A DNA stretch of 64,000 nt from Candidatus Woesearchaeota archaeon (GCA_030640025.1 DAOWKC010000002.1:506995-570994), one strand, 5' to 3'. Shown: positions 4,699 to 49,632, numbered from the stretch's first letter. Notes: generated by a model from the letters alone, not told the origin. Made by a program: numbers and translations.

Positions 4699-5502
4699 AT
4701 GGCACATTGGAATAATTTTATCAAAAGTTTCAGGAAACTCAAGAAGAATTTTATTTATATTTTCTTAAGCAACGGCCTTTATGTATTTTTAGTTGTTTTA
4801 TTTTATGAGCTAATCCAAAAACTTTTGTCTTGGCAAGGCAGTAATTTTACCCAAGGCAAGTCAGCAGAAGAGATTAATTCATTTCTTTTATCAGCAACTT
4901 CTGAGCAACTGGAGGGAATGCTGGCTGAATTGAAAATATATCTAGCAACAATTTTTAGCTCTTATTTACTTTATTTGATTTTGATTATTGTTTTATTTTC
5001 TTTAAGCCAGGCTTTGATCTGGCATCTTTTGATGGGCAAGAAATTAAGTAAAAAACATTTTTGGAAATGGAATGTGTTTACTTTGATTATGGCGCCTGTT
5101 TTTTTGATCAGTCTGTTTTTGTTTTTGGGAGTAAAATTTCTAATCTTGTTTTTGATTAAGGGAATAAACGTCAATGTTTTTATGACCATCAACCAGATTT
5201 TTAATTTGGTTTATTTGCTGGCGTTTGTTTATTTCTTTTTTATACTTTGCAGCCGGTTGACTTTAACTAATGAGATTTTTATTTCATTTAAGAGGACTTT
5301 TGGAGTTATTAAACAGAAATTTAAGGAGTTAAGTATTTCCTTTTTATTTGCTTTTTTAGTGGCAGTTGTGCTGTCGGTAATTTCAATTTTAATCTTTACT
5401 GGCATACCATCCCTTTTGCCTTATTTGCTTTATGTTAACCTTGCAGTTGTACTTATTTTCTTGGCTTGGTTGAGCATTTATTTAGCTGATTTTGTTAACT
5501 AA
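4699..5502 (+). CDS. Polytopic membrane protein (similar layout to 17348-18127)
   Basis: About 6 hydrophobic segments. Confidence 0.7.
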   Translation: MAHWNNFIKSFRKLKKNFIYIFLSNGLYVFLVVLFYELIQKLLSWQGSNFTQGKSAEEINSFLLSATSEQLEGMLAELKIYLATIFSSYLLYLILIIVLFSLSQALIWHLLMGKKLSKKHFWKWNVFTLIMAPVFLISLFLFLGVKFLILFLIKGINVNVFMTINQIFNLVYLLAFVYFFFILCSRLTLTNEIFISFKRTFGVIKQKFKELSISFLFAFLVAVVLSVISILIFTGIPSLLPYLLYVNLAVVLIFLAWLSIYLADFVN

Positions 5503-5699: not shown

Positions 5700-7583
5700 G
5701 GACAGATTACAATATTCATAATCCTAGGTATACTTCTATTAATTGCCATTGCGTTGATAGTTATTTTTAGAAGGGAAATAACTGTTTTTCAACCAGAAAG
5801 AGTATTGCCGCCAGAATTAGCACCAGTAGCAAGTTATGGTGACAATTGTTTAGAGGCAGTGGTGATGGATGGTTTACATTTAATGGGGGCGCAAGGCGGT
5901 TATATTTATTTTCCGTCAGAGATAGAAAATAATCCTTTGTCTTATATTGATACAGGCCTTAAAATTCCTTATTGGCAGTATATTACAGACAATAGAATTC
6001 CTTCTTTAGGTTTAATGGAGGCTCATCTAAGCAGATATATTGAAGAACATATCAATGATTGTTTAGAGGGTTTTGAGCCTTTTCAGGATCAATATGATTT
6101 TATCCAAAAGGGAGCTGTAGAAGCAGAGACAACAATTGGGGATGTTAATGTGGTTGTTGAGATGGAATATCCTTTTGAGGTGGTCAATAAAGAAGGAACA
6201 AAAATTACTGATTTGGATTCTTTTAAAGTGATTCTGCCAGTTAAACTGAAAAGAGTTTATGAAGTGGCCAAACAAATCATGGAGACAGAGTCTGAAGACA
6301 ATAAACTAGAAAAAGTTACTATTGATTTGATTTCACTTGACCCTGAAATTCCAATTTCTGGTTTTGAATTAAGCTGCTCCCAGAAGATCTGGCAGGTAAA
6401 TGAAGTTGAAAGCAAATTAAAAACTTTGCTGAGGACAAACCTGCCTTTAATCAGAGTTGATAAAACTAGTTATGCAGCTGTACCTGATGACCAGCCTTAT
6501 ATCCTGAATCATTTTGTCTGGGATGTGACTGAGTCAACTTATCGGGATATCAAAGCATCAATTCAATTTAATGAAATCAATCCTTTGATGATGGCGGTAA
6601 CACCTCGAGACGGCAATTTGCTGAAAAGCGGAATGCAGCAAGGGCAGGATATAGCTTCTTTTGTCTGCATGCAGATGTGGAAATTTACTTATGATGTGCA
6701 ATATACTGTGGTGGTTGCTGTTGAAGACGTGGAAAATAATTTTGCACTTAATTTTGGTTTTAATGTTCAAGTCAAGGACAACAGGCCGAGCAGGGATATC
6801 TTGGGTGCGGCCACCCAAACCTTTGTCCAGTATGATGCAACTGCTGAGGCTTATTGTGCAGAAGAGAATAAGTATGGAAATTATAATATGAAAATCTATA
6901 CTTATGACAATGTTTCTGACCCAACTTTGGGAGAAAGCAGTTTCCCAATCCATAATGTTGACATTACTTTTACTTGTTTGAAATTTAAATGTGAGATGGG
7001 CAAGACAAAGTTTGAACAAGGCGGTGCTATTTCAGTTTTGGAAGCACGATTTCCATATTGTGTCAATGGTATTTTACGAGCCAATAAAGAAGGTTATCAA
7101 GAGACCTTTGAATTTGTAACAACTGTGCCGGGCAAAGAAGTGAGTTTGTATTTGAAACCACTGCATATAATTGATAAATATTCTGTTGTCAAACACGAAC
7201 TAGTTAATGGTGTATTGTCAGCTGCCCAGCCTTTGGCAGAAGGGGAAAGCGCCTTTATTACTATCAAATATGTTGAAAATGAAACGATTAAGCATTCAAC
7301 CAGTGGAGCATATCCAGCAATATTAGACGGTGAATTGCAGCCAATTGAATTATTGGCAGAAGCTGATTTTACTTATGACCTTGAAGTTTATTTAATGGAT
7401 GACGAAGATTTGATTGGCGGTTTTAACAGTGCCTGGACACCGCTTTGGACTGATTTAGGCGGCTCAGATGAGATTGTTTTCCATGTGGTTGAGGTGGGAG
7501 CGCCAGTGTCAGAGCAACAAACTTTGAGTTTTTTAAATAATATCAAAACCTATTCAAGTCAAATAATTCCTGAATTAAAATGA
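5688..7583 (+). CDS. Large protein with archaeal class III (type IV pilin-like) signal peptide
   Basis: MKKRG/QITIFIILGILLL prepilin-peptidase motif followed by hydrophobic helix. Confidence 0.75.
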   Translation: MKKRGQITIFIILGILLLIAIALIVIFRREITVFQPERVLPPELAPVASYGDNCLEAVVMDGLHLMGAQGGYIYFPSEIENNPLSYIDTGLKIPYWQYITDNRIPSLGLMEAHLSRYIEEHINDCLEGFEPFQDQYDFIQKGAVEAETTIGDVNVVVEMEYPFEVVNKEGTKITDLDSFKVILPVKLKRVYEVAKQIMETESEDNKLEKVTIDLISLDPEIPISGFELSCSQKIWQVNEVESKLKTLLRTNLPLIRVDKTSYAAVPDDQPYILNHFVWDVTESTYRDIKASIQFNEINPLMMAVTPRDGNLLKSGMQQGQDIASFVCMQMWKFTYDVQYTVVVAVEDVENNFALNFGFNVQVKDNRPSRDILGAATQTFVQYDATAEAYCAEENKYGNYNMKIYTYDNVSDPTLGESSFPIHNVDITFTCLKFKCEMGKTKFEQGGAISVLEARFPYCVNGILRANKEGYQETFEFVTTVPGKEVSLYLKPLHIIDKYSVVKHELVNGVLSAAQPLAEGESAFITIKYVENETIKHSTSGAYPAILDGELQPIELLAEADFTYDLEVYLMDDEDLIGGFNSAWTPLWTDLGGSDEIVFHVVEVGAPVSEQQTLSFLNNIKTYSSQIIPELK

Positions 7584-40294: not shown

Positions 40295-41209
40295 TCACCA
40301 TTCAACTGTCCTGGCCATATTCTTCAAGCAAGAATTCAAGTTTTTCAAGTGGTAGCTGAGGTTATGGTCAAGGTTTAAGTCATCAATTTGTTTCATTCTG
40401 TCCTGGTGTTCTAAGTTAATCTTTCTGGCTGTTGGGATGTTGTTTTTGTGGTAAGCTTTCATAAGCTGGAAGTATTTGTCACCTAACATTGAATTGATTT
40501 CCTTGACTTTATTTTTATTTTTATTGAGTTTTCCGTACAATCTTGAAATTCTTTTGACTTCATCGCCGATTGATTCTAATAACGAGATTATATTCCAGTC
40601 TTTGAGGAGTTCTTTGTTTTTTCTTTTGAGTTTTTCTGCGACATGAGGCTCTTCTAGAGCAAGTTTGATAACTCTTTTTAACAACAAAGTCAATTTGTTG
40701 ATTTCATTGTCTCTTTGGAAGATGCTTTCATAGTAATCCTCATGCAGATTAGAGGTGGAATCCTTAATCATAGAACGGATAATGATGTCAATTCTCCTAA
40801 TCAAGGATTCAATGGAAACTTCTTTGAGGTTGATTAAGTCCCTGGCAAGAATTCTGTTAGTCTCTTGTTCAATCAATTCCATACCAATAAGATTTTTGAA
40901 AGTGGTTTTAATGTCGAGAACAAAGTCTTGTAAGTTTCTGCCTTTGATGTCAATGATGTCATAATTGGCTAGGTAAGCAGCAACAATTTCTGCTTGGATT
41001 TCTTTGAGTTCTTTGGTTTCTGTTAAAATGGTTGTTCTTAAAGGTTCATGAATATCTTTTTTTTCTTTGGGACAGACAATCAGATTGTCTTTATCTTCTA
41101 AGAGATTGATCGTATCTCCCTTTTTGAGGTTGTTTCTTCTGACCCAGTATTTAGGCAAAGAAATGACAAAAGAAGTTTTGCCGAATTCGATTATTTTACG
41201 GTATTCCAT
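40295..41209 (-). CDS. AbrB-PhoU phosphate uptake regulator
   Basis: RKIIEFGKTSFVISLPK.W; LESIGDE. Confidence 0.85.
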   Translation of the reverse strand: MEYRKIIEFGKTSFVISLPKYWVRRNNLKKGDTINLLEDKDNLIVCPKEKKDIHEPLRTTILTETKELKEIQAEIVAAYLANYDIIDIKGRNLQDFVLDIKTTFKNLIGMELIEQETNRILARDLINLKEVSIESLIRRIDIIIRSMIKDSTSNLHEDYYESIFQRDNEINKLTLLLKRVIKLALEEPHVAEKLKRKNKELLKDWNIISLLESIGDEVKRISRLYGKLNKNKNKVKEINSMLGDKYFQLMKAYHKNNIPTARKINLEHQDRMKQIDDLNLDHNLSYHLKNLNSCLKNMARTVEW

Positions 41210-41409
41210 AAAGCACCTCATTTATTCTATGTATAATATATAGCATAGAACTATAAAATTGTTTTACCAACAATATTCACATTACGTGTACTTTTTAAAG
41301 GGTGCTGAGTATCCTCCAAATGTCATTACCAGTATCCTTTTATTTCTTTAATAAGATTTATAAATGGCTTGGAATCTGAGTATTAAAGATAAGTTTTGGG
41401 GGGAATAAT

Positions 41410-42258
41410 ATGACAGAAAGAAATTTTGAGATACCAAATTTAGAGGCGATAGATGCCAGCAGTCCAGATTATGCTGCAAACTTAGAAGCTGCTTGGTTAT
41501 CTATTGGAAAAGAAATGCAAGCAATTCAAGATGATGCTGATGCTTTTTCAGAAGGTACTGATGAAGGCTTAGTAGCGCGTTTAAAAAAAGCAGGCCTTAA
41601 TCCACAGGTACAGAGAAGCAATATACTAATAGTTAGCGGTTCTGGAATTGGTGTTAGTTCTAGTAGTACTGTCGGTGTTCCTCCGGAACAAGTAGAAAAA
41701 GCTGAACCCATAAGAAACGCGTATAGAGATGAAACAGATCTTAGAGAAGAAGGTTATGAGGTAAGATTAGAATCTTTAAGTGAAGCAAGGGGTGGTTTTA
41801 AATCAGCTGTTCTAGACTTGACTAAAGTAGAACCTTTGAATACAATCAATCCTGAAAATGCTGAAACTTTACTTTACCTTGTAAGATCTGGAAATAGTGA
41901 GGGTGCTGGTGTTTATTTAGGAACAGTTGCATTAGATTGTAAAACAAACCCTGACGAAGAAAAAGAAGACAGGAATTATGGTTTTGGTTTGTTAGATATA
42001 TTAAGACAGGTGGTCAGTATTCCTACAGCAACTTTGGAGCGAAAAGAAGATCTGAAACCAGAAGCTTTTGTAGATTCAGGTTACATGGATGACTTTAGAG
42101 CACAGCAAAAGGAAGTCACAGGCCAAAATGTTTATTTGGTAACCAACCCAACGACGATAGTTACCTCAAATGTACTTCTTGAGCAGGGTTTTGAAGCAGC
42201 AAAAAAAGACATCTGTGTGGGCTGTGAGAAATATAAAACTCATGCCAAAGAAGATTAA
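41410..42258 (+). CDS. Hypothetical protein, N-terminus paralogous to 43736-44620
   Basis: NFEIPNL...Y...L...GLVARLKKAGLN. Confidence 0.65.
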   Translation: MTERNFEIPNLEAIDASSPDYAANLEAAWLSIGKEMQAIQDDADAFSEGTDEGLVARLKKAGLNPQVQRSNILIVSGSGIGVSSSSTVGVPPEQVEKAEPIRNAYRDETDLREEGYEVRLESLSEARGGFKSAVLDLTKVEPLNTINPENAETLLYLVRSGNSEGAGVYLGTVALDCKTNPDEEKEDRNYGFGLLDILRQVVSIPTATLERKEDLKPEAFVDSGYMDDFRAQQKEVTGQNVYLVTNPTTIVTSNVLLEQGFEAAKKDICVGCEKYKTHAKED

Positions 42259-42609: not shown

Positions 42610-42699
42610 TTTGGTGATGGATAAATCTACGATTTATATATGTTTCTTATAAATTAAATGGCTCGAATTAAAATTCTCAAGGCTGTTTTTTGTTTGACC

Positions 42700-42984
42700 A
42701 TGAGCTTGGAAAAATTTATTTTGGAAGTTTTGCGGGAATTTGATGTGGTTCACAAAAAAAAATTGAGCAAGAAAGACAGCTGTGTCGAAGTTGATTTCCA
42801 GCGGAAAAAAATCTATCTGCGGAAAGACCAGCCAGGTTACGGCCTGGATACTTTTCTTTTGACTGGTATTGCTCGTGTTTATTATCGGTTTTATCATCGC
42901 CAAGAAGCTGATATGGGGGATGCCTTGGATTTGGCTAAGAAATGGTACAGCGAGATATACTCAGACCTGAAGCCCGAGGATTAG
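42700..42984 (+). CDS. Degenerate paralog of downstream HExxH protein (no zinc motif)
   Basis: ILEVLREFD..HKK..DF.RKKIY..KDQ..G.DT aligns with 42942 ORF. Confidence 0.65.
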   Translation: MSLEKFILEVLREFDVVHKKKLSKKDSCVEVDFQRKKIYLRKDQPGYGLDTFLLTGIARVYYRFYHRQEADMGDALDLAKKWYSEIYSDLKPED

Positions 42985-43259
42985 TTAAGGTAATTCTTGA
43001 AGTTTTGAGAGAATTTGATTTGATACATAAGAAAATGAAATGCCGCGGTGAAGCTGATTTTGGCAAGAGGAAAATTTACTATAAGAAAGACCAGGAATAT
43101 TATGAAGGTATGGATACTTTGCTGCATGAATTTATCCATGTTTACCGCGATTGTTATTTAGGGAATGAAAAACCGCCTGGAGATGAGGATGAAGCAGAAA
43201 CTGTTTTGAATGCTGATTATTGGGGGAGATTGGTTTTTGGGGATTTAGAGGATATATAA
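42942..43259 (+). CDS. Small zincin-like metallopeptidase
   Basis: DTLLHEFIHVY with downstream Glu residues; start uncertain. Confidence 0.7.
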   Translation: MVQRDILRPEARGLVKVILEVLREFDLIHKKMKCRGEADFGKRKIYYKKDQEYYEGMDTLLHEFIHVYRDCYLGNEKPPGDEDEAETVLNADYWGRLVFGDLEDI

Positions 43260-43311
43260 CCTATAAATTACATAGCCAGAATTAAACTAGTTTTTTTGCG
43301 TTATTTTATTT

Positions 43312-43345
43312 GAAAGAGCAGACTTCCAACATCTAGCTCTTTCTG
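43312..43345 (+). ncRNA. Conserved-loop hairpin copy 1 (GCAGACTTCCAACA 43318-43331)
   Basis: GAAAGAGC-AGA-[CTTCCAACA]-TCT-A-GCTCTTTC, ending 7 nt before ATG 43351. Confidence 0.7.
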
Positions 43346-43350
43346 CCTAA

Positions 43351-43668
43351 ATGGATAAGCATGAAAGTTTAAAAAAGAGGATAAAAGAAAATCCAGGGCT
43401 GATTGGTCTGGAAAACATTTTGGGTGTGGAAGAAGAGGTGCCTTGCTACAATGAAGATGGAAATCTGGTCTGCCAGCCGGATCTTATTTTTGAGCTGGAA
43501 AATGGCAAGGTCTTGGTTGAAGTCAAGAGCAGCAATCATAGGAGGGCGTTAGCAAAATTAGACGAGCAGTTGAGACGAGGATATAATTATTTCAAAAAAC
43601 AAGGAGAATTTTACGATTGTATTGGTGTTTATCTGGAAAATGACGAAGTAATGTGGTATAAAAGATAA
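43351..43668 (+). CDS. Small PD-(D/E)XK nuclease-fold protein
   Basis: QPDLIF...VLVEVKSS...QL. Confidence 0.7.
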   Translation: MDKHESLKKRIKENPGLIGLENILGVEEEVPCYNEDGNLVCQPDLIFELENGKVLVEVKSSNHRRALAKLDEQLRRGYNYFKKQGEFYDCIGVYLENDEVMWYKR

Positions 43669-43735
43669 TTTGTCTAAAATCAGTGACAAAAAACATACCA
43701 TAAACTATATAAGATATCTTTATTTTGGGTTTATT

Positions 43736-44620
43736 ATGGTAGATAATTTTGAAGTTCCGAGTTTGGATAACTTAAATCATTCTGATTCAGGTTATGTTTC
43801 TCAATTAAATCAAGATTTATTGAATATGGATTCAAGGTATCATTGGATTGATGAACAAGCTGAAGTTCTGTTTAGTGGTTTAGTAGCACGTTTGAAAGAA
43901 AAAGGAATTAATGAAGACAATTATTCAACAATTAAAGGGAGTAAACATTGTGCTGATTATCCAGGGTATAGCAGGAAATCTTTTGAGATAAAAATTAAAA
44001 CAGAAGACGAAAAGGAAAGAAAGAAAATTGAAGATATTATTGATGCTCATAAGAGGGAAGTAGCACCTCAATTATTTGAATTATTGGAACAAGAAAAAAA
44101 ATTAGACAAAGCTTATGCTGAATTTCGAACAGCAGCTGCAGAAGTTTCTGATATTAATCCCTTAAGGCCAGTTGATTTGGAATATAATGGTTTTGTTATT
44201 TATCTTCAGGGAGATGAAGATATTCTTGAAATGTATTTTGATATTAATGATTTAAAAAAATCAGAATTATTGTCAGTCAAGGAAGATCATACAAAAATTT
44301 GTGAAACTCATAAACTTCCAAATCCAACTCCAAATTTTCCTAAATTAACTGACCCAAAATTCTTAGATGAATTAAGAGAAGAAACAAAAAATATTCCCTT
44401 CAACATTTATATTGTGACTAATTCTATTGAAAGAGTAGTATATAATGAAGTTTTCTTTTATGCTAGGCATCGGATTATAAAAGAAGTTTCTGAATTAAGA
44501 GAAAGACAACCGGAATTAAAAGAAAAACAACCTTGGCCTTATGCTCAACAGTTTGCTAAGGATTTAATGGAAAAATTTATGAAAAAATCAACACAGTCCA
44601 CACAAGAACACGAAGAATAA
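43736..44620 (+). CDS. Hypothetical protein, N-terminus paralogous to 41410-42258
   Basis: NFEVPSL...GLVARLKEKGIN. Confidence 0.65.
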   Translation: MVDNFEVPSLDNLNHSDSGYVSQLNQDLLNMDSRYHWIDEQAEVLFSGLVARLKEKGINEDNYSTIKGSKHCADYPGYSRKSFEIKIKTEDEKERKKIEDIIDAHKREVAPQLFELLEQEKKLDKAYAEFRTAAAEVSDINPLRPVDLEYNGFVIYLQGDEDILEMYFDINDLKKSELLSVKEDHTKICETHKLPNPTPNFPKLTDPKFLDELREETKNIPFNIYIVTNSIERVVYNEVFFYARHRIIKEVSELRERQPELKEKQPWPYAQQFAKDLMEKFMKKSTQSTQEHEE

Positions 44621-44695
44621 CTATTTCTTGTTTAGAATATGTTCTATATTTTAGATATAGGTCGATTATATAGCCCTAGAAATCTAAGTAATACT

Positions 44696-44734
44696 TAGAA
44701 AGAAGCAGACTTCCAACAACTGTTTTTCTTTCTG
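44696..44734 (+). ncRNA. Conserved-loop hairpin copy 2 (motif 44705-44718)
   Basis: TAGAAAGAAGCAG-[ACTTCCAACAA]-CTGTTTTTCTTTCTG abutting RBS GGGGTG. Confidence 0.7.
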
Positions 44735-44743
44735 GGGTGCTGA

Positions 44744-45493
44744 ATGAGATTAAACACTGCTAAGTTCGACCTAGATAAGTTAGTCTTATTTTACATTACA
44801 GACATTCATTTGGGTTCTAAGTATTGTGATGAAGATTTACTCAAAGAATTTCTTGATTCAGCAATGGAAGATCCAAATGCTTTTGTGATTGACGGCGGTG
44901 ATTTGCTGGAAACAGCAACTAAAGATTCTGTAGGAGCAGGTATTTTTGAACAAGATGAGATTGTGCAGGAGCAGATAGAGCATGCAGTTAAATTGTACAG
45001 GCCTTTGGCTGATGAGGGTAAATTACTGGGATTGCATCGGGGTAATCATGAATATCGTGTTTTTAAACATTCTGGGACAAATCTAACAAAAATTATGGCA
45101 CAAATGCTGGGTGTCAAGTATTTTGGTGATGGGGTGCTGCATTATTTCAAAGTTGGCAATGAGAATTACAGTTTGTATTCCTGCCATGGTTCTTCTGGGG
45201 CGAGACTGCCCCACACCAAAATCAAATCGGCCATTGATTTAGCCAACATGGTGGATGTGGAAGTTTATCTGATGGGGCATCTGCATCAGTTGTCGCATCA
45301 CACCAGGGTTTTCTATTCAATTGACAAGAGAAAAAGAACTGTGGTTGAAGGCCAAAAGCACTTTGTTCTGGGTGGATCATATCTGAATCATTGGGGAAGC
45401 TACGGCCAGATGAAAGGCTATGAGATGATGAGAAAAGGTTCTCCCAAAATCAAGCTGCATGGCGACAAGCACATAATCCGGGTGAGTTTGTAA
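44744..45493 (+). CDS. Calcineurin-like metallophosphoesterase
   Basis: TDIHLG, GGDL, GNHE, CHG, GHLH. Confidence 0.88.
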   Translation: MRLNTAKFDLDKLVLFYITDIHLGSKYCDEDLLKEFLDSAMEDPNAFVIDGGDLLETATKDSVGAGIFEQDEIVQEQIEHAVKLYRPLADEGKLLGLHRGNHEYRVFKHSGTNLTKIMAQMLGVKYFGDGVLHYFKVGNENYSLYSCHGSSGARLPHTKIKSAIDLANMVDVEVYLMGHLHQLSHHTRVFYSIDKRKRTVVEGQKHFVLGGSYLNHWGSYGQMKGYEMMRKGSPKIKLHGDKHIIRVSL

Positions 45494-45494
45494 A

Positions 45495-45716
45495 ATGGAA
45501 TACACAACTTTGATAGAAAAAGAATGCGGACATTTTGGTTTGATACAAAATAAACTGCCGAATGAGATGGTGCAGTGCAGCCAATGTGAATTAAACGGCG
45601 GTAAAGGCAGGGTTAAGGTAATACAAAGCAAATTAATCGACAGCGGAGAAGTACCTGAGCTGGATTTTTCTGAGTTAGACAAGTGGATTGGTTCTCAGCT
45701 GATAGACAGGACGTGA
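45495..45716 (+). CDS. Small Zn-ribbon-like protein
   Basis: CGH...CSQC. Confidence 0.55.
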   Translation: MEYTTLIEKECGHFGLIQNKLPNEMVQCSQCELNGGKGRVKVIQSKLIDSGEVPELDFSELDKWIGSQLIDRT

Positions 45717-45721
45717 TAAAG

Positions 45722-46021
45722 ATGAATCTAGAAGAAAAAGGAAGGAAGATGTACAATTCATTGACAGAATTTTATGAAAGATACGAAAGAATGGAATTTT
45801 TGGAATATGTGATCAAGTATGCAGAACTAGAGGCAGAATTTCTGGGAATTGATTTTGAGATGATTGTTTCTTTTAGAGGCTACATAATGCTGGAAGATGT
45901 TTACAAGAGAAACATTGAGCATCTGCAGAGCGGTGGTGAGGGAGCAGTGCCTTTGGAAATTCTAACTGAAGGAGAAATCAAACATGAATTAAAACAAAAA
46001 TATGGTGGTGTAAAAAAATAA
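45722..46021 (+). CDS. Hypothetical protein
   Basis: ORF in operon; ATG 45722. Confidence 0.55.
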   Translation: MNLEEKGRKMYNSLTEFYERYERMEFLEYVIKYAELEAEFLGIDFEMIVSFRGYIMLEDVYKRNIEHLQSGGEGAVPLEILTEGEIKHELKQKYGGVKK

Positions 46022-46056
46022 GATGCGGGCAGACTTCCAACAGCTGAAAGCATCTG
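46021..46056 (+). ncRNA. Conserved-loop hairpin copy 3 (motif 46029-46042)
   Basis: AGATGC-GGG-CAG-[ACTTCCAACAG]-CTG-AAA-GCATCT abutting RBS GGAGG. Confidence 0.7.
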
Positions 46057-46066
46057 GAGGATGAGA

Positions 46067-47227
46067 ATGAGTCAATTATTGGAAATATTAAGGAAAACTG
46101 CTAGGACAACTGCATTGACAGGTGCTTTTCTAGCAACAGCTGCTTTTACACATCTTTACACAAAGATTGATGTAGAAAACAATATGAGGCAAAATGATAA
46201 TGAAATTATTGTTCATCACAATGATTTAGTTGATGCAGTTAATAGTTGGGCAGAATGTTCAAGCGAGAACAGAGAATCAATTGAAAATATTCACGAAGGC
46301 CTGACAGAAGTAATTGAATGGTTTACCAAAGAGGGGATTAAGTATCGGATTGCAATCTATGGTTTGGCCAAGGGTTTGCAAGGAGTTGGCCAGCAAGTTG
46401 GCAAGAATAAGAATGCATTGGATTCAATTGCAGAAAAGGGAAAAGCTCTGTTTGACGGCAAATATGATTTCAATAATTCTTTAGTTGATCATAGTAAAAA
46501 AGGTCTTGAGGGAATTGCTGAATCATTGTATTTTATTGAAACAGAAACTGTTTTTGAGAGGAAGAAGGGCGCGGAAGTAGAAACTGCCAAGCCAACAATT
46601 AGAGGCGGAGCAACTGCAATTCTTAATGGCCAATACTTAATTACCTGTAATCATGTTGTTAACAGAGAGAAATTAAGTATTGGTTTTGGGCCGTGGCAGA
46701 TGGAGATGCCTGGTTATGAAAAGAAATCAGAAGTGACTTATTTGTTATTGGGTGAGGAGAAAGTTGCTTTAGAAACTGTTCTTAAAGATAAGGCAAATGA
46801 TGTGGCTATCTTTAAGGTGCCTGAAGGTTATAACTTGCACAGTCTGCCTTGTGCCTTGGGAAATTCAGATGAATTGCAGAAAGGCAATTTCCTCTATGTA
46901 GTTGGTGTGCCAGGAGCTTTTGGTGTTAATGTGCGTGAAGGGATTTATTCTACAGGACAAGTTCCAGAAGCTCTGAATGGTAGATTCAATACTGAAAATG
47001 CCTTTATGGTTTCCTGCGGTTTGAATCCAGGTGATTCCGGGACAATGATTATTGGGGTTCGTGACGGCCAGTATGAATTTGTGGGTCTGCCTCAGGGCAA
47101 GTTTATGGGTCCTGAGAAAATGGGCTGGGCAATTGGCATGACACCAATCAAAAAACTGGTTCGTTCATATTTGGAGCAGAATGATTTGGTCAAGAAGCAT
47201 AAAGACTTGTATGACGGACTAAAATGA
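46067..47227 (+). CDS. Trypsin-like (S1/HtrA-type) serine protease with N-terminal anchor and coiled coil
   Basis: ITCNHVV, NDVAIFK, LNPGDSG triad; start 46061 or 46067. Confidence 0.85.
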   Translation: MSQLLEILRKTARTTALTGAFLATAAFTHLYTKIDVENNMRQNDNEIIVHHNDLVDAVNSWAECSSENRESIENIHEGLTEVIEWFTKEGIKYRIAIYGLAKGLQGVGQQVGKNKNALDSIAEKGKALFDGKYDFNNSLVDHSKKGLEGIAESLYFIETETVFERKKGAEVETAKPTIRGGATAILNGQYLITCNHVVNREKLSIGFGPWQMEMPGYEKKSEVTYLLLGEEKVALETVLKDKANDVAIFKVPEGYNLHSLPCALGNSDELQKGNFLYVVGVPGAFGVNVREGIYSTGQVPEALNGRFNTENAFMVSCGLNPGDSGTMIIGVRDGQYEFVGLPQGKFMGPEKMGWAIGMTPIKKLVRSYLEQNDLVKKHKDLYDGLK

Positions 47228-47553
47228 AGGTTTATGTCTCTAAAGACGTGCAGTGTATTTGGAATAGATTATGCGAGCTTTACACCAAAGAGCAACGCCA
47301 AGTGATTTACTCTGATCTAGAGATGGTGATTGAACAAACAGCTCTGGCTCAAGGAATTTCTTTGGATGAAGATGACCAGGAACACAAGGATTTGAATCAG
47401 AAAATTACTGACAGGTATATTGTTGGTGTTTATGCAATTGGTGTCCGGTATTTGCATGAAGTGCCTGAAGCCAAGGAAATTCCTGTTGTTAACTTTACTT
47501 ATGAAGAACTATTCAAAGAAAAACCGACTGACCCAGAGGACCAGCCGGGTTAA
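47224..47553 (+). CDS. Hypothetical protein
   Basis: ATGA-like overlap with protease gene. Confidence 0.55.
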   Translation: MKVYVSKDVQCIWNRLCELYTKEQRQVIYSDLEMVIEQTALAQGISLDEDDQEHKDLNQKITDRYIVGVYAIGVRYLHEVPEAKEIPVVNFTYEELFKEKPTDPEDQPG

Positions 47554-47597
47554 AGACTGCAGAGCAGACTTCCAACATTTGTTTTGTGGTCTTTCTG
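47552..47597 (+). ncRNA. Conserved-loop hairpin copy 4 (motif 47564-47577)
   Basis: 17-bp stem AAAGACTGCAGAGCAGA/TTTGTTTTGTGGTCTTT with 5 G-U pairs, loop CTTCCAACA. Confidence 0.75.
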
Positions 47598-47617
47598 GTA
47601 TTTAAAACTTGTTGAAA

Positions 47618-48687: not shown

Positions 48688-49632
48688 ATGAAAAGAAAAG
48701 TCGTTAAACACGGGAGTGCCACTCTAACTATTTCTCTGCCGGCAAAGTGGGCTAGGAAATATAATGTTAAATCTGGTGATGAACTGGAAATTAAAGAAGA
48801 GAATAAGAAATTAGTTGTTTCTTGTCCTGGTCATTTTGAGCCTATTAAAATAACTAATCTGAATTTGGATGAGTATGGTTTAATTGGCGGGAGATGTATT
48901 GGAGCTTTGTTTAAGGGTGGCTGTGATGCGATTAGGGTTTTTTATGAGAGCCCGGCTCAATTTTCTGTGGTGGAGAAGAATCTATCTGAATTAATTGGTT
49001 TTGAGATTATGCAGCAAAGTGATAAAAGCTGTTTGTTAAAGGAAGTTTCTGGTCTGACTGACAATGGCGAGTTAAACAGCATGGTCAAAAGGACTTTTTT
49101 ATTATTGATTTCTGTTTCAGATGATTTTGCAGATTGTATTGGCAAGGGCAATAAAGAAGTTTTGATGAATTTAGTTAGTAGAGATACAGCAATCAATAGA
49201 TTTGCTAATTTTAGCCGGAGATTGTTGAATAAAAAAGGCACGGCCAAGTCAACAGATGTGCCAATGATTTACTATATTATTGAAGAATTAGAGAATTTAG
49301 GCGATGAATACAAATATGCTTCCAGGTATTTGGCTGACAATAACCTGAAAATAACTAATGCAGATATTTTAAAGACAGCTAAAGACATTAATGTTTTGAT
49401 AAGGGATTTTTTCAGCCTTTATTTTAAATTTTCAAGCAAAGGGGCAAAAAAATTAATGGAAGACAGAGAAAAAATAATGAGGGTTATTAACAAGCAGTTT
49501 AAAAATGCTGGCTGCAAAGAAGTCAAGGTTTTGGATTATTTGTCAAGGATGGTTCATATTATTGTCAATATGCAGGGGCCGTTGTTAACTATGAAGCTGC
49601 CTGAGGTTTGCTCTGAGAAGGCCTTTGAATAG
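48688..49632 (+). CDS. AbrB-PhoU phosphate uptake regulator (second copy)
   Basis: RKVVKHGSATLTISLPAKW; LENLGDE. Confidence 0.85.
   Translation: MKRKVVKHGSATLTISLPAKWARKYNVKSGDELEIKEENKKLVVSCPGHFEPIKITNLNLDEYGLIGGRCIGALFKGGCDAIRVFYESPAQFSVVEKNLSELIGFEIMQQSDKSCLLKEVSGLTDNGELNSMVKRTFLLLISVSDDFADCIGKGNKEVLMNLVSRDTAINRFANFSRRLLNKKGTAKSTDVPMIYYIIEELENLGDEYKYASRYLADNNLKITNADILKTAKDINVLIRDFFSLYFKFSSKGAKKLMEDREKIMRVINKQFKNAGCKEVKVLDYLSRMVHIIVNMQGPLLTMKLPEVCSEKAFE

Follow-up and report, generated by a model that had tools for sequence, protein, structure and literature searches.

A candidate cis-acting RNA stem-loop repeated along a single operon of a Woesearchaeal genome

Why should the same 14 bases recur four times between the genes of one archaeal operon, always on the coding strand and always at the top of a hairpin? 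The question is raised by a 64,000-nucleotide stretch of the genome of a Candidatus Woesearchaeota archaeon from cold-seep sediment (GCA_030640025.1, DAOWKC010000002.1:506995-570994; hereafter the window, in which all positions are counted from the first base), where an operon for a small nuclease, a phosphoesterase and a protease is punctuated by four hairpins, here called HP1 to HP4. A preliminary description of this DNA had proposed either a structured RNA signal controlling the genes or a single-stranded recombination site of an attC-like cassette array. We tentatively favour, with somewhat less than even confidence, the reading that the hairpins are a cis-acting RNA stem-loop that marks the starts and the end of the operon's transcripts. 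To our knowledge, post-transcriptional control in DPANN archaea is very poorly understood, and an RNA motif of this kind has not been catalogued from them. The hairpin is small, sharply defined, present across species and tied to one operon, and would offer a tractable handle on how messenger RNA (mRNA) is marked, stabilised or processed in these organisms.

Four copies of one core

The 14-mer GCAGACTTCCAACA occurs at 43318, 44705, 46029 and 47564, each time on the plus strand, between genes and capping a hairpin, as first described. The copies are separated by 1387, 1324 and 1535 nt of coding DNA, and the part that is identical between them extends over only 14–17 nt. No further site was found in the 64-kb window with up to two mismatches allowed; shuffled windows contained 0.63 sites on average, and one shuffle in 100 reached four.

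The core is just as restricted in the whole genome of the window (G000; 1,299,980 bases in four contigs, 96.6% complete), where exact sites of a 13-mer core are the four window copies only. The single site with one mismatch lies on the opposite strand within a coding frame that reads ...MDADFQHPPEKV... (translated by hand). The loop 9-mer CTTCCAACA occurs 18 times in G000 and takes the position of a hairpin loop only in the four window copies. Among 61 close relatives of G000, a scan with the 13-mer (at most one mismatch) gave zero exact sites, and the lone one-mismatch sites were scattered over both strands, like those of a reversed control. A relaxed scan of G000 for GRCTTCC in a hairpin loop passed 17 of 143 sites under a loose test, with 14 of 205, 18 of 196 and 9 of 99 passing in the controls; besides HP1, HP2 and HP4, a single one of the 17 (contig C3, minus strand, 37142, -15.5 kcal/mol) folds below -13 kcal/mol, and HP3 itself fails the loose test. 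In a second genome, G403, which carries one of the related islands described below and is flagged as unpublished, all three AGCWGRCTTCC sites lie in the island, and a control pattern gave 0. The hairpin family is confined to this operon in both whole genomes checked (G000 and G403).

Two core-like candidates were set aside. A search of viral contigs for GCAGACTTCCAACA followed by TCTG after 8–30 nt returned 25 stretches with a single match, none of which folded into a stem and loop like those of the window, and we treated them as chance or coding matches. The core-like GCGACTTCCC upstream of the left PhoU gene in the related contig L057 has no counterpart in the window and was likewise treated as chance.

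All four hairpins are on the plus strand. HP1 (43312–43343) is composed of GAAAGAGCAGA, a 9-nt loop and UCU-A-GCUCUUUC, with the core GCAGACTTCC at 43318–43327 and 11 pairs, all Watson–Crick; it lies in the leader of the nuclease gene and ends 7 nt ahead of the ATG at 43351. HP2 (44694–44736; core at 44705–44714) has 15 pairs, three of them G-U, and orthologous copies in the related contigs L057, L056 and L059; its 3' foot runs into GGGGTG, the ribosome-binding site (RBS) of the phosphoesterase gene. HP3 (46021–46055; core at 46029–46038) folds as AGAUGC-GGG-CAG / loop / CUG-AAA-GCAUCU and abuts the RBS GGAGGA, after which the protease starts. HP4 (47552–47595; core at 47564–47573) has a 17-bp stem with five G-U pairs; the TATA-like TATTTAAAA belonging to the next gene comes after it. 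HP3 and HP4 begin at the stop codons of the open reading frames (ORFs) 45683..46021 and 47224..47553, respectively. These placements agree with the preliminary description, which had also singled out a TCTG at the 3' foot; this is present in all four window copies but is not universal in relatives, the feet across copies being TCTG, TCTAG, TTTGTG or TCTAT. By eye, CUUCCA of the loop can pair with the UGGAGG that follows HP3, but we rejected loop–RBS pairing as the shared function because the first and last copies have no such RBS.

Folding and conservation of the stem-loop

Each window copy folds on the plus strand, with energies of -11.9, -14.3, -12.1 and -21.4 kcal/mol and z-scores of -3.15, -2.26, -1.72 and -3.89 for HP1 to HP4. 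The fold of HP4, with its 17 pairs, is lost on the minus strand (-8.2 kcal/mol, z 0.02), as had been predicted from its G-U pairs. HP1 folds slightly better on the minus strand (-14.8 versus -11.9 kcal/mol), which corrects the picture of a uniformly plus-strand element.

Scans with the phosphoesterase located related islands on four metagenome contigs and one Woesearchaeal genome contig, with proteins 78–80% identical. L057 and L069, the latter held in G403, show 0 differences over 16,747 bases; DNA identity to L057 is 92% for L056 and 81% for L059, and L058 is a shorter contig of the L059 type. The sample is four lineages; closer relatives are known as proteins only, namely relatives of the nuclease at 76–85% identity, one of them encoded on a 79-kb contig, and relatives of s99. 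Within the phosphoesterase gene, DNA identity is 74–75% between the window and the relatives and 81% between the L057/L056 and L059 lineages. We name copies W (window), A (L057) or C (L059), numbered by their order along the operon.

The four lineages together contain 15 hairpin copies (four each in the window, L057 and L059, and three in L056), every one on the coding strand. The string GCWGRCTTCC, which comprises the top of the 5' arm and the first loop bases, is exact in 14 of them, and the fifteenth has one extra A. Most copies in the relatives read GCATAGCWGRCTTCCA, and the remaining loop bases vary. The invariant CUUCCAACA loop of the preliminary description is thus a property of the window's genome, whereas the constant part across lineages is GCWGRCTTCC. 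Invariance of CUUCCAACA within G000 could reflect gene conversion or a genome-specific partner.

The hairpins also keep their places. In every lineage whose contig reaches the position in question, they stand before the nuclease gene, before the phosphoesterase gene, in mid-operon and after the last gene, and in all related islands the operon is flanked by orthologs of the window's two AbrB-PhoU genes. The relatives have the order hairpin, nuclease, two small ORFs, hairpin, phosphoesterase, AAA ATPase, s73, a 107-aa ORF, hairpin, s99, trypsin-like protease, hairpin; the window has hairpin, nuclease, ORF294, hairpin, phosphoesterase, s73, s99, hairpin, protease, s109, hairpin. The mid-operon hairpin is accordingly displaced by one gene: it precedes s99 in the relatives and follows it in the window. 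Because one hairpin family occupies matching operon positions in lineages whose phosphoesterase genes share 74–81% of their DNA sequence, the element is, by this comparison, under selection. The repeated hairpin was not found at other phosphoesterase loci (the tailed-virus contig L026, and L062, L064 and L070), and none of the distant nuclease homologs, which occur in five of 401 genomes of the class, has it upstream. In a same-genus genome (G001, 69% complete), the contig with the right-hand PhoU ortholog has a different upstream gene and no hairpin.

Pairing is retained while the stems change. The 5' arms are purine-rich and the 3' arms pyrimidine-rich, and there are at least four versions of the stem sequence, with pairing kept in each. 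Many stems share AGAAAGAGC/GCTCTTTCT; the arms of HP3, HP4 and the relatives' terminal copies are different but still matched to each other. MAFFT failed to set all 3' arms in one register, and pairing was assessed by arm swaps and RNAalifold. Swapping arms among 11 copies gave chimeras with a mean of -8.2 kcal/mol against a native mean of -13.8 kcal/mol, and for W2, W3, W4, A3 and C4 the native hairpin folds better than all 10 chimeras, in line with the earlier statement that the lower stems differ yet keep pairing. RNAalifold on eight copies yields a 10-pair consensus stem in which three pairs are changed on both sides. The plus strand gives the better fold in 13 of the 15 copies, and G-U pairs make up 30 of 291 pairs on the plus strand and 18 of 282 on the minus strand. 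We regard this evidence of pairing and strand as moderate. The element belongs to no family in Rfam 15, which gives 0 matches at gathering score in the window and 0 at E <= 1 in L056, L057 and L059, and full-text literature searches, in the portions of text they returned, contained nothing on it.

Candidate roles of the element

Where the copies stand relative to expression signals suggests what they may do. The TATA-like box TTATATA (44666–44672, plus strand), a putative internal promoter, precedes the first paired base of HP2 by 28 nt and aligns with TATATAT boxes 28–31 nt upstream of the HP2 copies of L057 and L059. Among the six copies at the first two positions, five (W2, A2, C2, A1 and C1) have a conserved TATA-like box 28–35 nt upstream of the first paired base; for W1 the nearest is 50 nt upstream. 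Archaeal TATA boxes are centred near -26, and since the distance of the boxes fits this geometry, these five hairpins would start at the predicted 5' end of a transcript or only a few bases from it. All six mid-operon copies are followed by a G-rich RBS and an ATG within 0–4 nt of the 3' foot, and the last copy of every lineage lies after the final stop codon and ahead of the TATA-like box of the next gene. The hairpin thus appears to mark predicted transcript starts, one internal cistron start and the operon end.

We propose that an accessory, virus-related operon carries one stem-loop several times in its transcripts. Every copy would present a purine-rich 5' arm, a pyrimidine-rich 3' arm, a conserved asymmetric 5'-GCWGRCUUCC strand that runs from the top of the 5' arm into the loop and a 3' half of the loop that can vary. 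Copies would lie at or near the 5' ends of the predicted nuclease and phosphoesterase transcripts, one against the RBS of an internal cistron and the last at the 3' end. The stem may cap or insulate the mRNA units, protecting their ends and keeping the RBS free of upstream context, and the conserved strand may serve as the handle by which a single factor reads all units and coordinates their processing, stability or translation. Such a factor may be encoded by the host or may be one of the co-conserved operon proteins (nuclease, s73 or s99). Transcription, start sites and the binding factor are what we infer here, beyond the sequence, fold, strand bias, conservation, position and operon restriction presented above. 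The RNA signal of the preliminary description remains the best reading of a structured, strand-specific and conserved element, amended in that the invariant loop is limited to one genome and TCTG at the foot is not universal.

Several observations weigh against this reading. Both W1 and its L057 ortholog A1 fold better on the minus strand. The covariation term of RNAalifold is small (-0.22) and is based on four lineages, many stems carry the same AGAAAGAGC/GCUCUUUCU sequence, and a palindrome in DNA can keep its arms complementary with no role in RNA. Identity of the 14-mer within G000 could stem from gene conversion instead of selection. None of the candidate protein partners could be linked to RNA: the nuclease has a generic PD-(D/E)XK fold, and the s99 model has no relative among solved structures. 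Finally, close strains differ by the exact gain or loss of 49 nt that comprise HP3; together with the occurrence of the hairpin on differing sides of s99, this means that the element also behaves as movable DNA.

The indel deserves a closer description. The 49-nt stretch at 46017–46065 (plus strand) contains HP3, the RBS and the first ATG of the protease, with AAT at each end. Over the listed pieces, contigs of run X2 are roughly 89–98% identical to the window, and a single one of them (362 nt, depth 3.2) joins 46016 to 46066 and so is missing the stretch. In the joined form, the TGA of s99 overlaps the ATG of the protease (ATGA); the s99–protease junction of L057 is likewise hairpin-free, with the two genes one base apart. 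Because that junction is hairpin-free, outgroup parsimony favours a gain of HP3 in the window's lineage. The second protease ATG, at 46067, is probably the original start. HP3 is not a fresh copy of another hairpin in G000, because its lower stem differs from all others there. [quoted passage not shown]

A second change at the DNA level concerns the loop. The hairpin before the phosphoesterase gene in L056 and L059 carries a structured insert of about 97 nt directly after CTTCCAA (L056:38-135 and L059:2764-2862), which the L057 copy does not have; a shortened form is found in the third hairpin of L059 (L059:5083-5112). The insert consists of a hairpin CTAACTTTT..AAAAGTTAG, then GGATC, then a stem around two inner hairpins that differ between L056 and L059 with pairing kept. 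It is a dispersed repeat, with eight matches in G403 and seven in G079, and its first hairpin matches in 21 of 401 genomes of the order, in one case (L072) beside tRNA genes; these counts rest partly on G403 and on G374, also unpublished. No Rfam match was obtained for the 97-nt insert. The inserts of L056 and L059 share 79% identity, a divergence similar to that of the flanking genes. Around them the outer stem and the core persist (L056:12-156, -49.7 kcal/mol; L059:2738-2884, -45.3 kcal/mol), and this survival fits a folded strand and does not fit a spaced double-stranded DNA site.

These two changes are the strength of the alternative that the hairpin is a short palindromic DNA module of the REP, Correia or MITE sort, copied and lost at the gene junctions of the operon and tolerated or weakly useful there, with no dedicated partner at the RNA level. 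We consider this unlikely. The precise presence or absence of HP3, the empty site whose stop/start overlap resembles the L057 junction, the different sides of s99 on which the third hairpin lies, and the entry of a dispersed repeat into the loops of the relatives are all as expected of such a module, and G000 does contain one remnant of a Y1 transposase. The copies themselves behave otherwise: there are only four in G000, the three pattern sites of G403 are all in the island, none is dispersed, and all 15 have a single orientation. Matching positions and an intact core across 74–81% coding DNA identity would be unexpected for a selfish repeat, the lower stem of HP3, unlike that of any other copy in the genome, speaks against recent copying, and the Y1 gene is broken and 340 kb away. 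This Y1 gene (PF01797; IS200/IS605 or RAYT type, RAYT being the REP-associated tyrosine transposase) is the sole such locus in G000, at contig C4:207303-207639; it is probably a pseudogene, since it is split into two pieces by a TAA. That a functional-looking hairpin comes and goes at a gene junction, and has been entered by a dispersed repeat, bears on the relation between the many hairpin repeats of these genomes and regulatory RNA.

A more specific form of the proposed RNA mark, which we regard as unlikely and put forward speculatively, is that the hairpin is the RNA half of a private RNA–protein pair in a virus-derived, defence-like DPANN module, with one of the three proteins that occur only alongside the hairpins, the nuclease, s73 (zinc-binding) or s99, binding or cutting GCWGRCUUCC. 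If this were so, the operon RNA would be cut into hairpin-capped units, or the nuclease and protease would be held in check by their own transcript. For the idea that the loop mimics the anticodon loop of tRNA-Gly(UCC), a tRNA-Gly was sought in G000: ARAGORN reports 16 tRNA genes, none for Gly, and a simple scan likewise gave no candidate. Most of these 16 genes have long or oddly placed introns and none is in the window; many others are probably split or intron-rich and undetected.

The last copy invites another explanation, namely that the hairpin with its T-rich 3' arm ends or pauses transcripts between blocks. It directly follows the final stop codon and precedes the next TATA-like box in all lineages, and its 3' arm has T-runs (TTTGTTTTG in the window, CTTTTTC in L057 and L059); HP2 of the window also has T5. 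Archaeal termination needs T-runs and no hairpin, however, and termination at the first two copies, which are downstream of promoter-like boxes and before start codons, would silence the genes. Runs of at least four T are missing from window HP3 and from those L057 copies that precede the phosphoesterase and s99 genes, and the conserved asymmetric core is left unexplained. A terminator fits the last copy only, and we find it improbable for the element as a whole.

A double-stranded DNA operator at the start sites, bound by a transcription factor such as the flanking AbrB-PhoU proteins, seems to us quite improbable. The first two copies do lie just downstream of a TATA box, the usual position of an archaeal repressor, genes with AbrB domains flank the island in all lineages, and the palindrome AGAAAGAGC...GCTCTTTCT is common to many copies. 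The spacing of the arms, however, ranges from 9 to ~120 nt with pairing kept throughout, and the arms vary around a constant asymmetric centre, the opposite of the pattern that a dimeric factor recognises; there is no promoter upstream of the mid-operon and terminal copies, and the G-U pairs favour one folded strand.

The attC-like cassette array of the preliminary description, with which folded one-orientation sites, variable stems, differing gene content between sites and the gain or loss of one site would agree, is scarcely tenable, because there is no tyrosine recombinase within 78 kb (the four PF00589 matches of G000, on contigs C2, C3 and C4:470-472 kb, are all outside the window, the nearest at C4:470589-472522, ~78 kb away), because the top and loop are conserved and the foot is not, with no GTTRRRY-type foot seen in the hairpin sequences compared, and because no whole block has been exchanged, the nuclease and phosphoesterase genes staying behind HP1 and HP2 while the ATPase, the 107-aa ORF, s109 and ORF294 are gained or lost at ordinary gene junctions.

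The island's genes and comparison with known systems

The hairpins divide the island into three blocks, as first described (nuclease and ORFan; phosphoesterase and two ORFans; protease and ORFan). The first gene after HP1 encodes a small PD-(D/E)XK nuclease of 105 aa (43351..43668, plus strand, like all genes of the operon) with a weak match to phrog_1706 and invariant PD...ExK residues (D44, E57 and K59). Its structural model (predicted local distance difference test score, pLDDT, of 95.4) resembles Cas4 SSO0001, the R2 endonuclease domain, AddAB and Hjc, the generic PD-(D/E)XK relatives. It is followed by ORF294 (43736..44620; 294 aa), which has no family match and is absent from the relatives. 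The 249-aa metallophosphoesterase (44744..45493; phrog_7339, 8e-37) is the first gene after HP2. After it come s73 (45495..45716), a small protein with conserved C-x-H ... C-x2-C, and s99 (45722..46021), a small protein predicted to form four helices (model pLDDT 93), both present in all lineages. The 388-aa trypsin-like protease (46061..47227; Trypsin_2, 2.4e-11) precedes s109 (47224..47553), the last ORF before HP4, whose counterpart was not found in the relatives. A structure search with the s99 model gave no match at E below 3, and no significant hit came from searching solved structures with alignment profiles of the nuclease, s73 and s99. Among 5.8 billion clusters, the nuclease family counts 17 members; the s99 family has 11.

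Searches of 300 other genomes of the order and of 60 relatives of G403 did not find the phosphoesterase, and its relatives at 56–61% identity are in viral contigs. One of these, L026, has terminase and portal genes, and there the phosphoesterase and a related protease are adjacent, with no hairpin. The absence from the 300 genomes and the viral relatives together indicate that the island is accessory and shares genes with tailed viruses, and the hairpin thereby bears on the role of a co-conserved module of nuclease, phosphoesterase and protease that is partly shared with such viruses. In a search with defence-system profiles, the only matches are those of the protease to RT-protease (1.4e-8) and LmuA (9.5e-7) and of the relatives' ATPase to IetA (2.6e-26); no complete known defence system was found among the operon proteins in that search. 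The module may be defence-related, because the ATPase is IetA-like and the protease matches defence-associated proteases. In two viral contigs (L027 and L028), the phosphoesterase homolog is in two pieces ~940 nt apart (4918-5061 and 6001-6633), matching residues 7-54 and 44-249 of the query; this could reflect an intervening sequence, insertion of mobile DNA or duplication of the N-terminus. Two genomes of one family (L093 and L095) share a TTTAAATA box and a palindrome CAGTATACATAA(G/T)GTATA ~40-70 nt upstream of distant nuclease homologs, which may be a promoter with an operator.

The flanks are formed by an AbrB(MazE)-PhoU gene on the left (40295..41221, minus strand) and its paralog on the right (48688..49632, plus strand), each in place in every lineage whose contig extends that far. 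A paralog of ORF294 (41410-42258; 24% identity, E 3.5e-9), which has no family match and is not in the relatives, lies between the left PhoU gene and HP1. Also to the left are two tandem paralogous ORFs (42658-42984 and 42942-43259), 41% identical, and a degenerate third copy of their promoter and start (43252-43286; ATG changed to ATA) ends just upstream of HP1. Beyond HP4, the MgtC gene probably starts at ATG 47642 and not at TTG 47609, because the TTG form is covered by the Pfam match from residue 12 onwards and the TATA-like TATTTAAAA occupies 47600-47608; MgtC was not found in eight other genomes of the family.

Known systems resemble the element in part. The early and late transcripts of phage T7 are processed at intercistronic RNase III hairpins, and there, as here, several sense-strand hairpins with a shared internal sequence stand between cistrons and at the end, among genes of viral type. 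In T7 the shared feature is the internal loop of a long duplex, whereas here it is a conserved asymmetric strand at the loop; moreover, the host here is an archaeon, and cleavage by RNase III or another processing enzyme would be hypothetical. The lambda nut site, whose boxB is bound by N, is likewise a short hairpin conserved in the loop and not the stem, just downstream of promoters and once per transcription unit. We know of no N-like protein, boxA or antitermination system in archaea, and one copy here is at the operon end, where antitermination has no obvious role. Integron attC sites share the imperfect intergenic hairpins, variable stems and one orientation; they have a conserved foot (R''/R' with GTTRRRY) and a variable top.

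[quoted passage not shown] The 'spacers' here are coding genes of 1.3-1.5 kb, and there are no cas genes, no tandem array and no evidence of cleavage. A private RNA–protein pair of the kind considered above would work similarly to Cas6 with CRISPR repeats or ToxN with ToxI, except that whole mRNAs would lie between the repeats.

Bacterial intergenic palindromes co-transcribed with operons, namely the repetitive extragenic palindromic sequences and bacterial interspersed mosaic elements (REP/BIME), the enterobacterial repetitive intergenic consensus (ERIC) and the Correia elements, are treated in PMC3733652, PMC3184786 and PMC12306157. These families too are small junction palindromes inside operons that are gained and lost, fold in mRNA and can affect its stability, but they are dispersed in tens to hundreds of copies and in both orientations, whereas here four copies share one operon and one orientation. 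The element also has no GTAG or CGTC tag, and the one Y1 locus of its genome lies about 340 kb from it. Taken with its absence from Rfam, these comparisons suggest that the element is a new, operon-specific cis-acting hairpin motif whose gain and loss resemble those of REP and Correia sequences.

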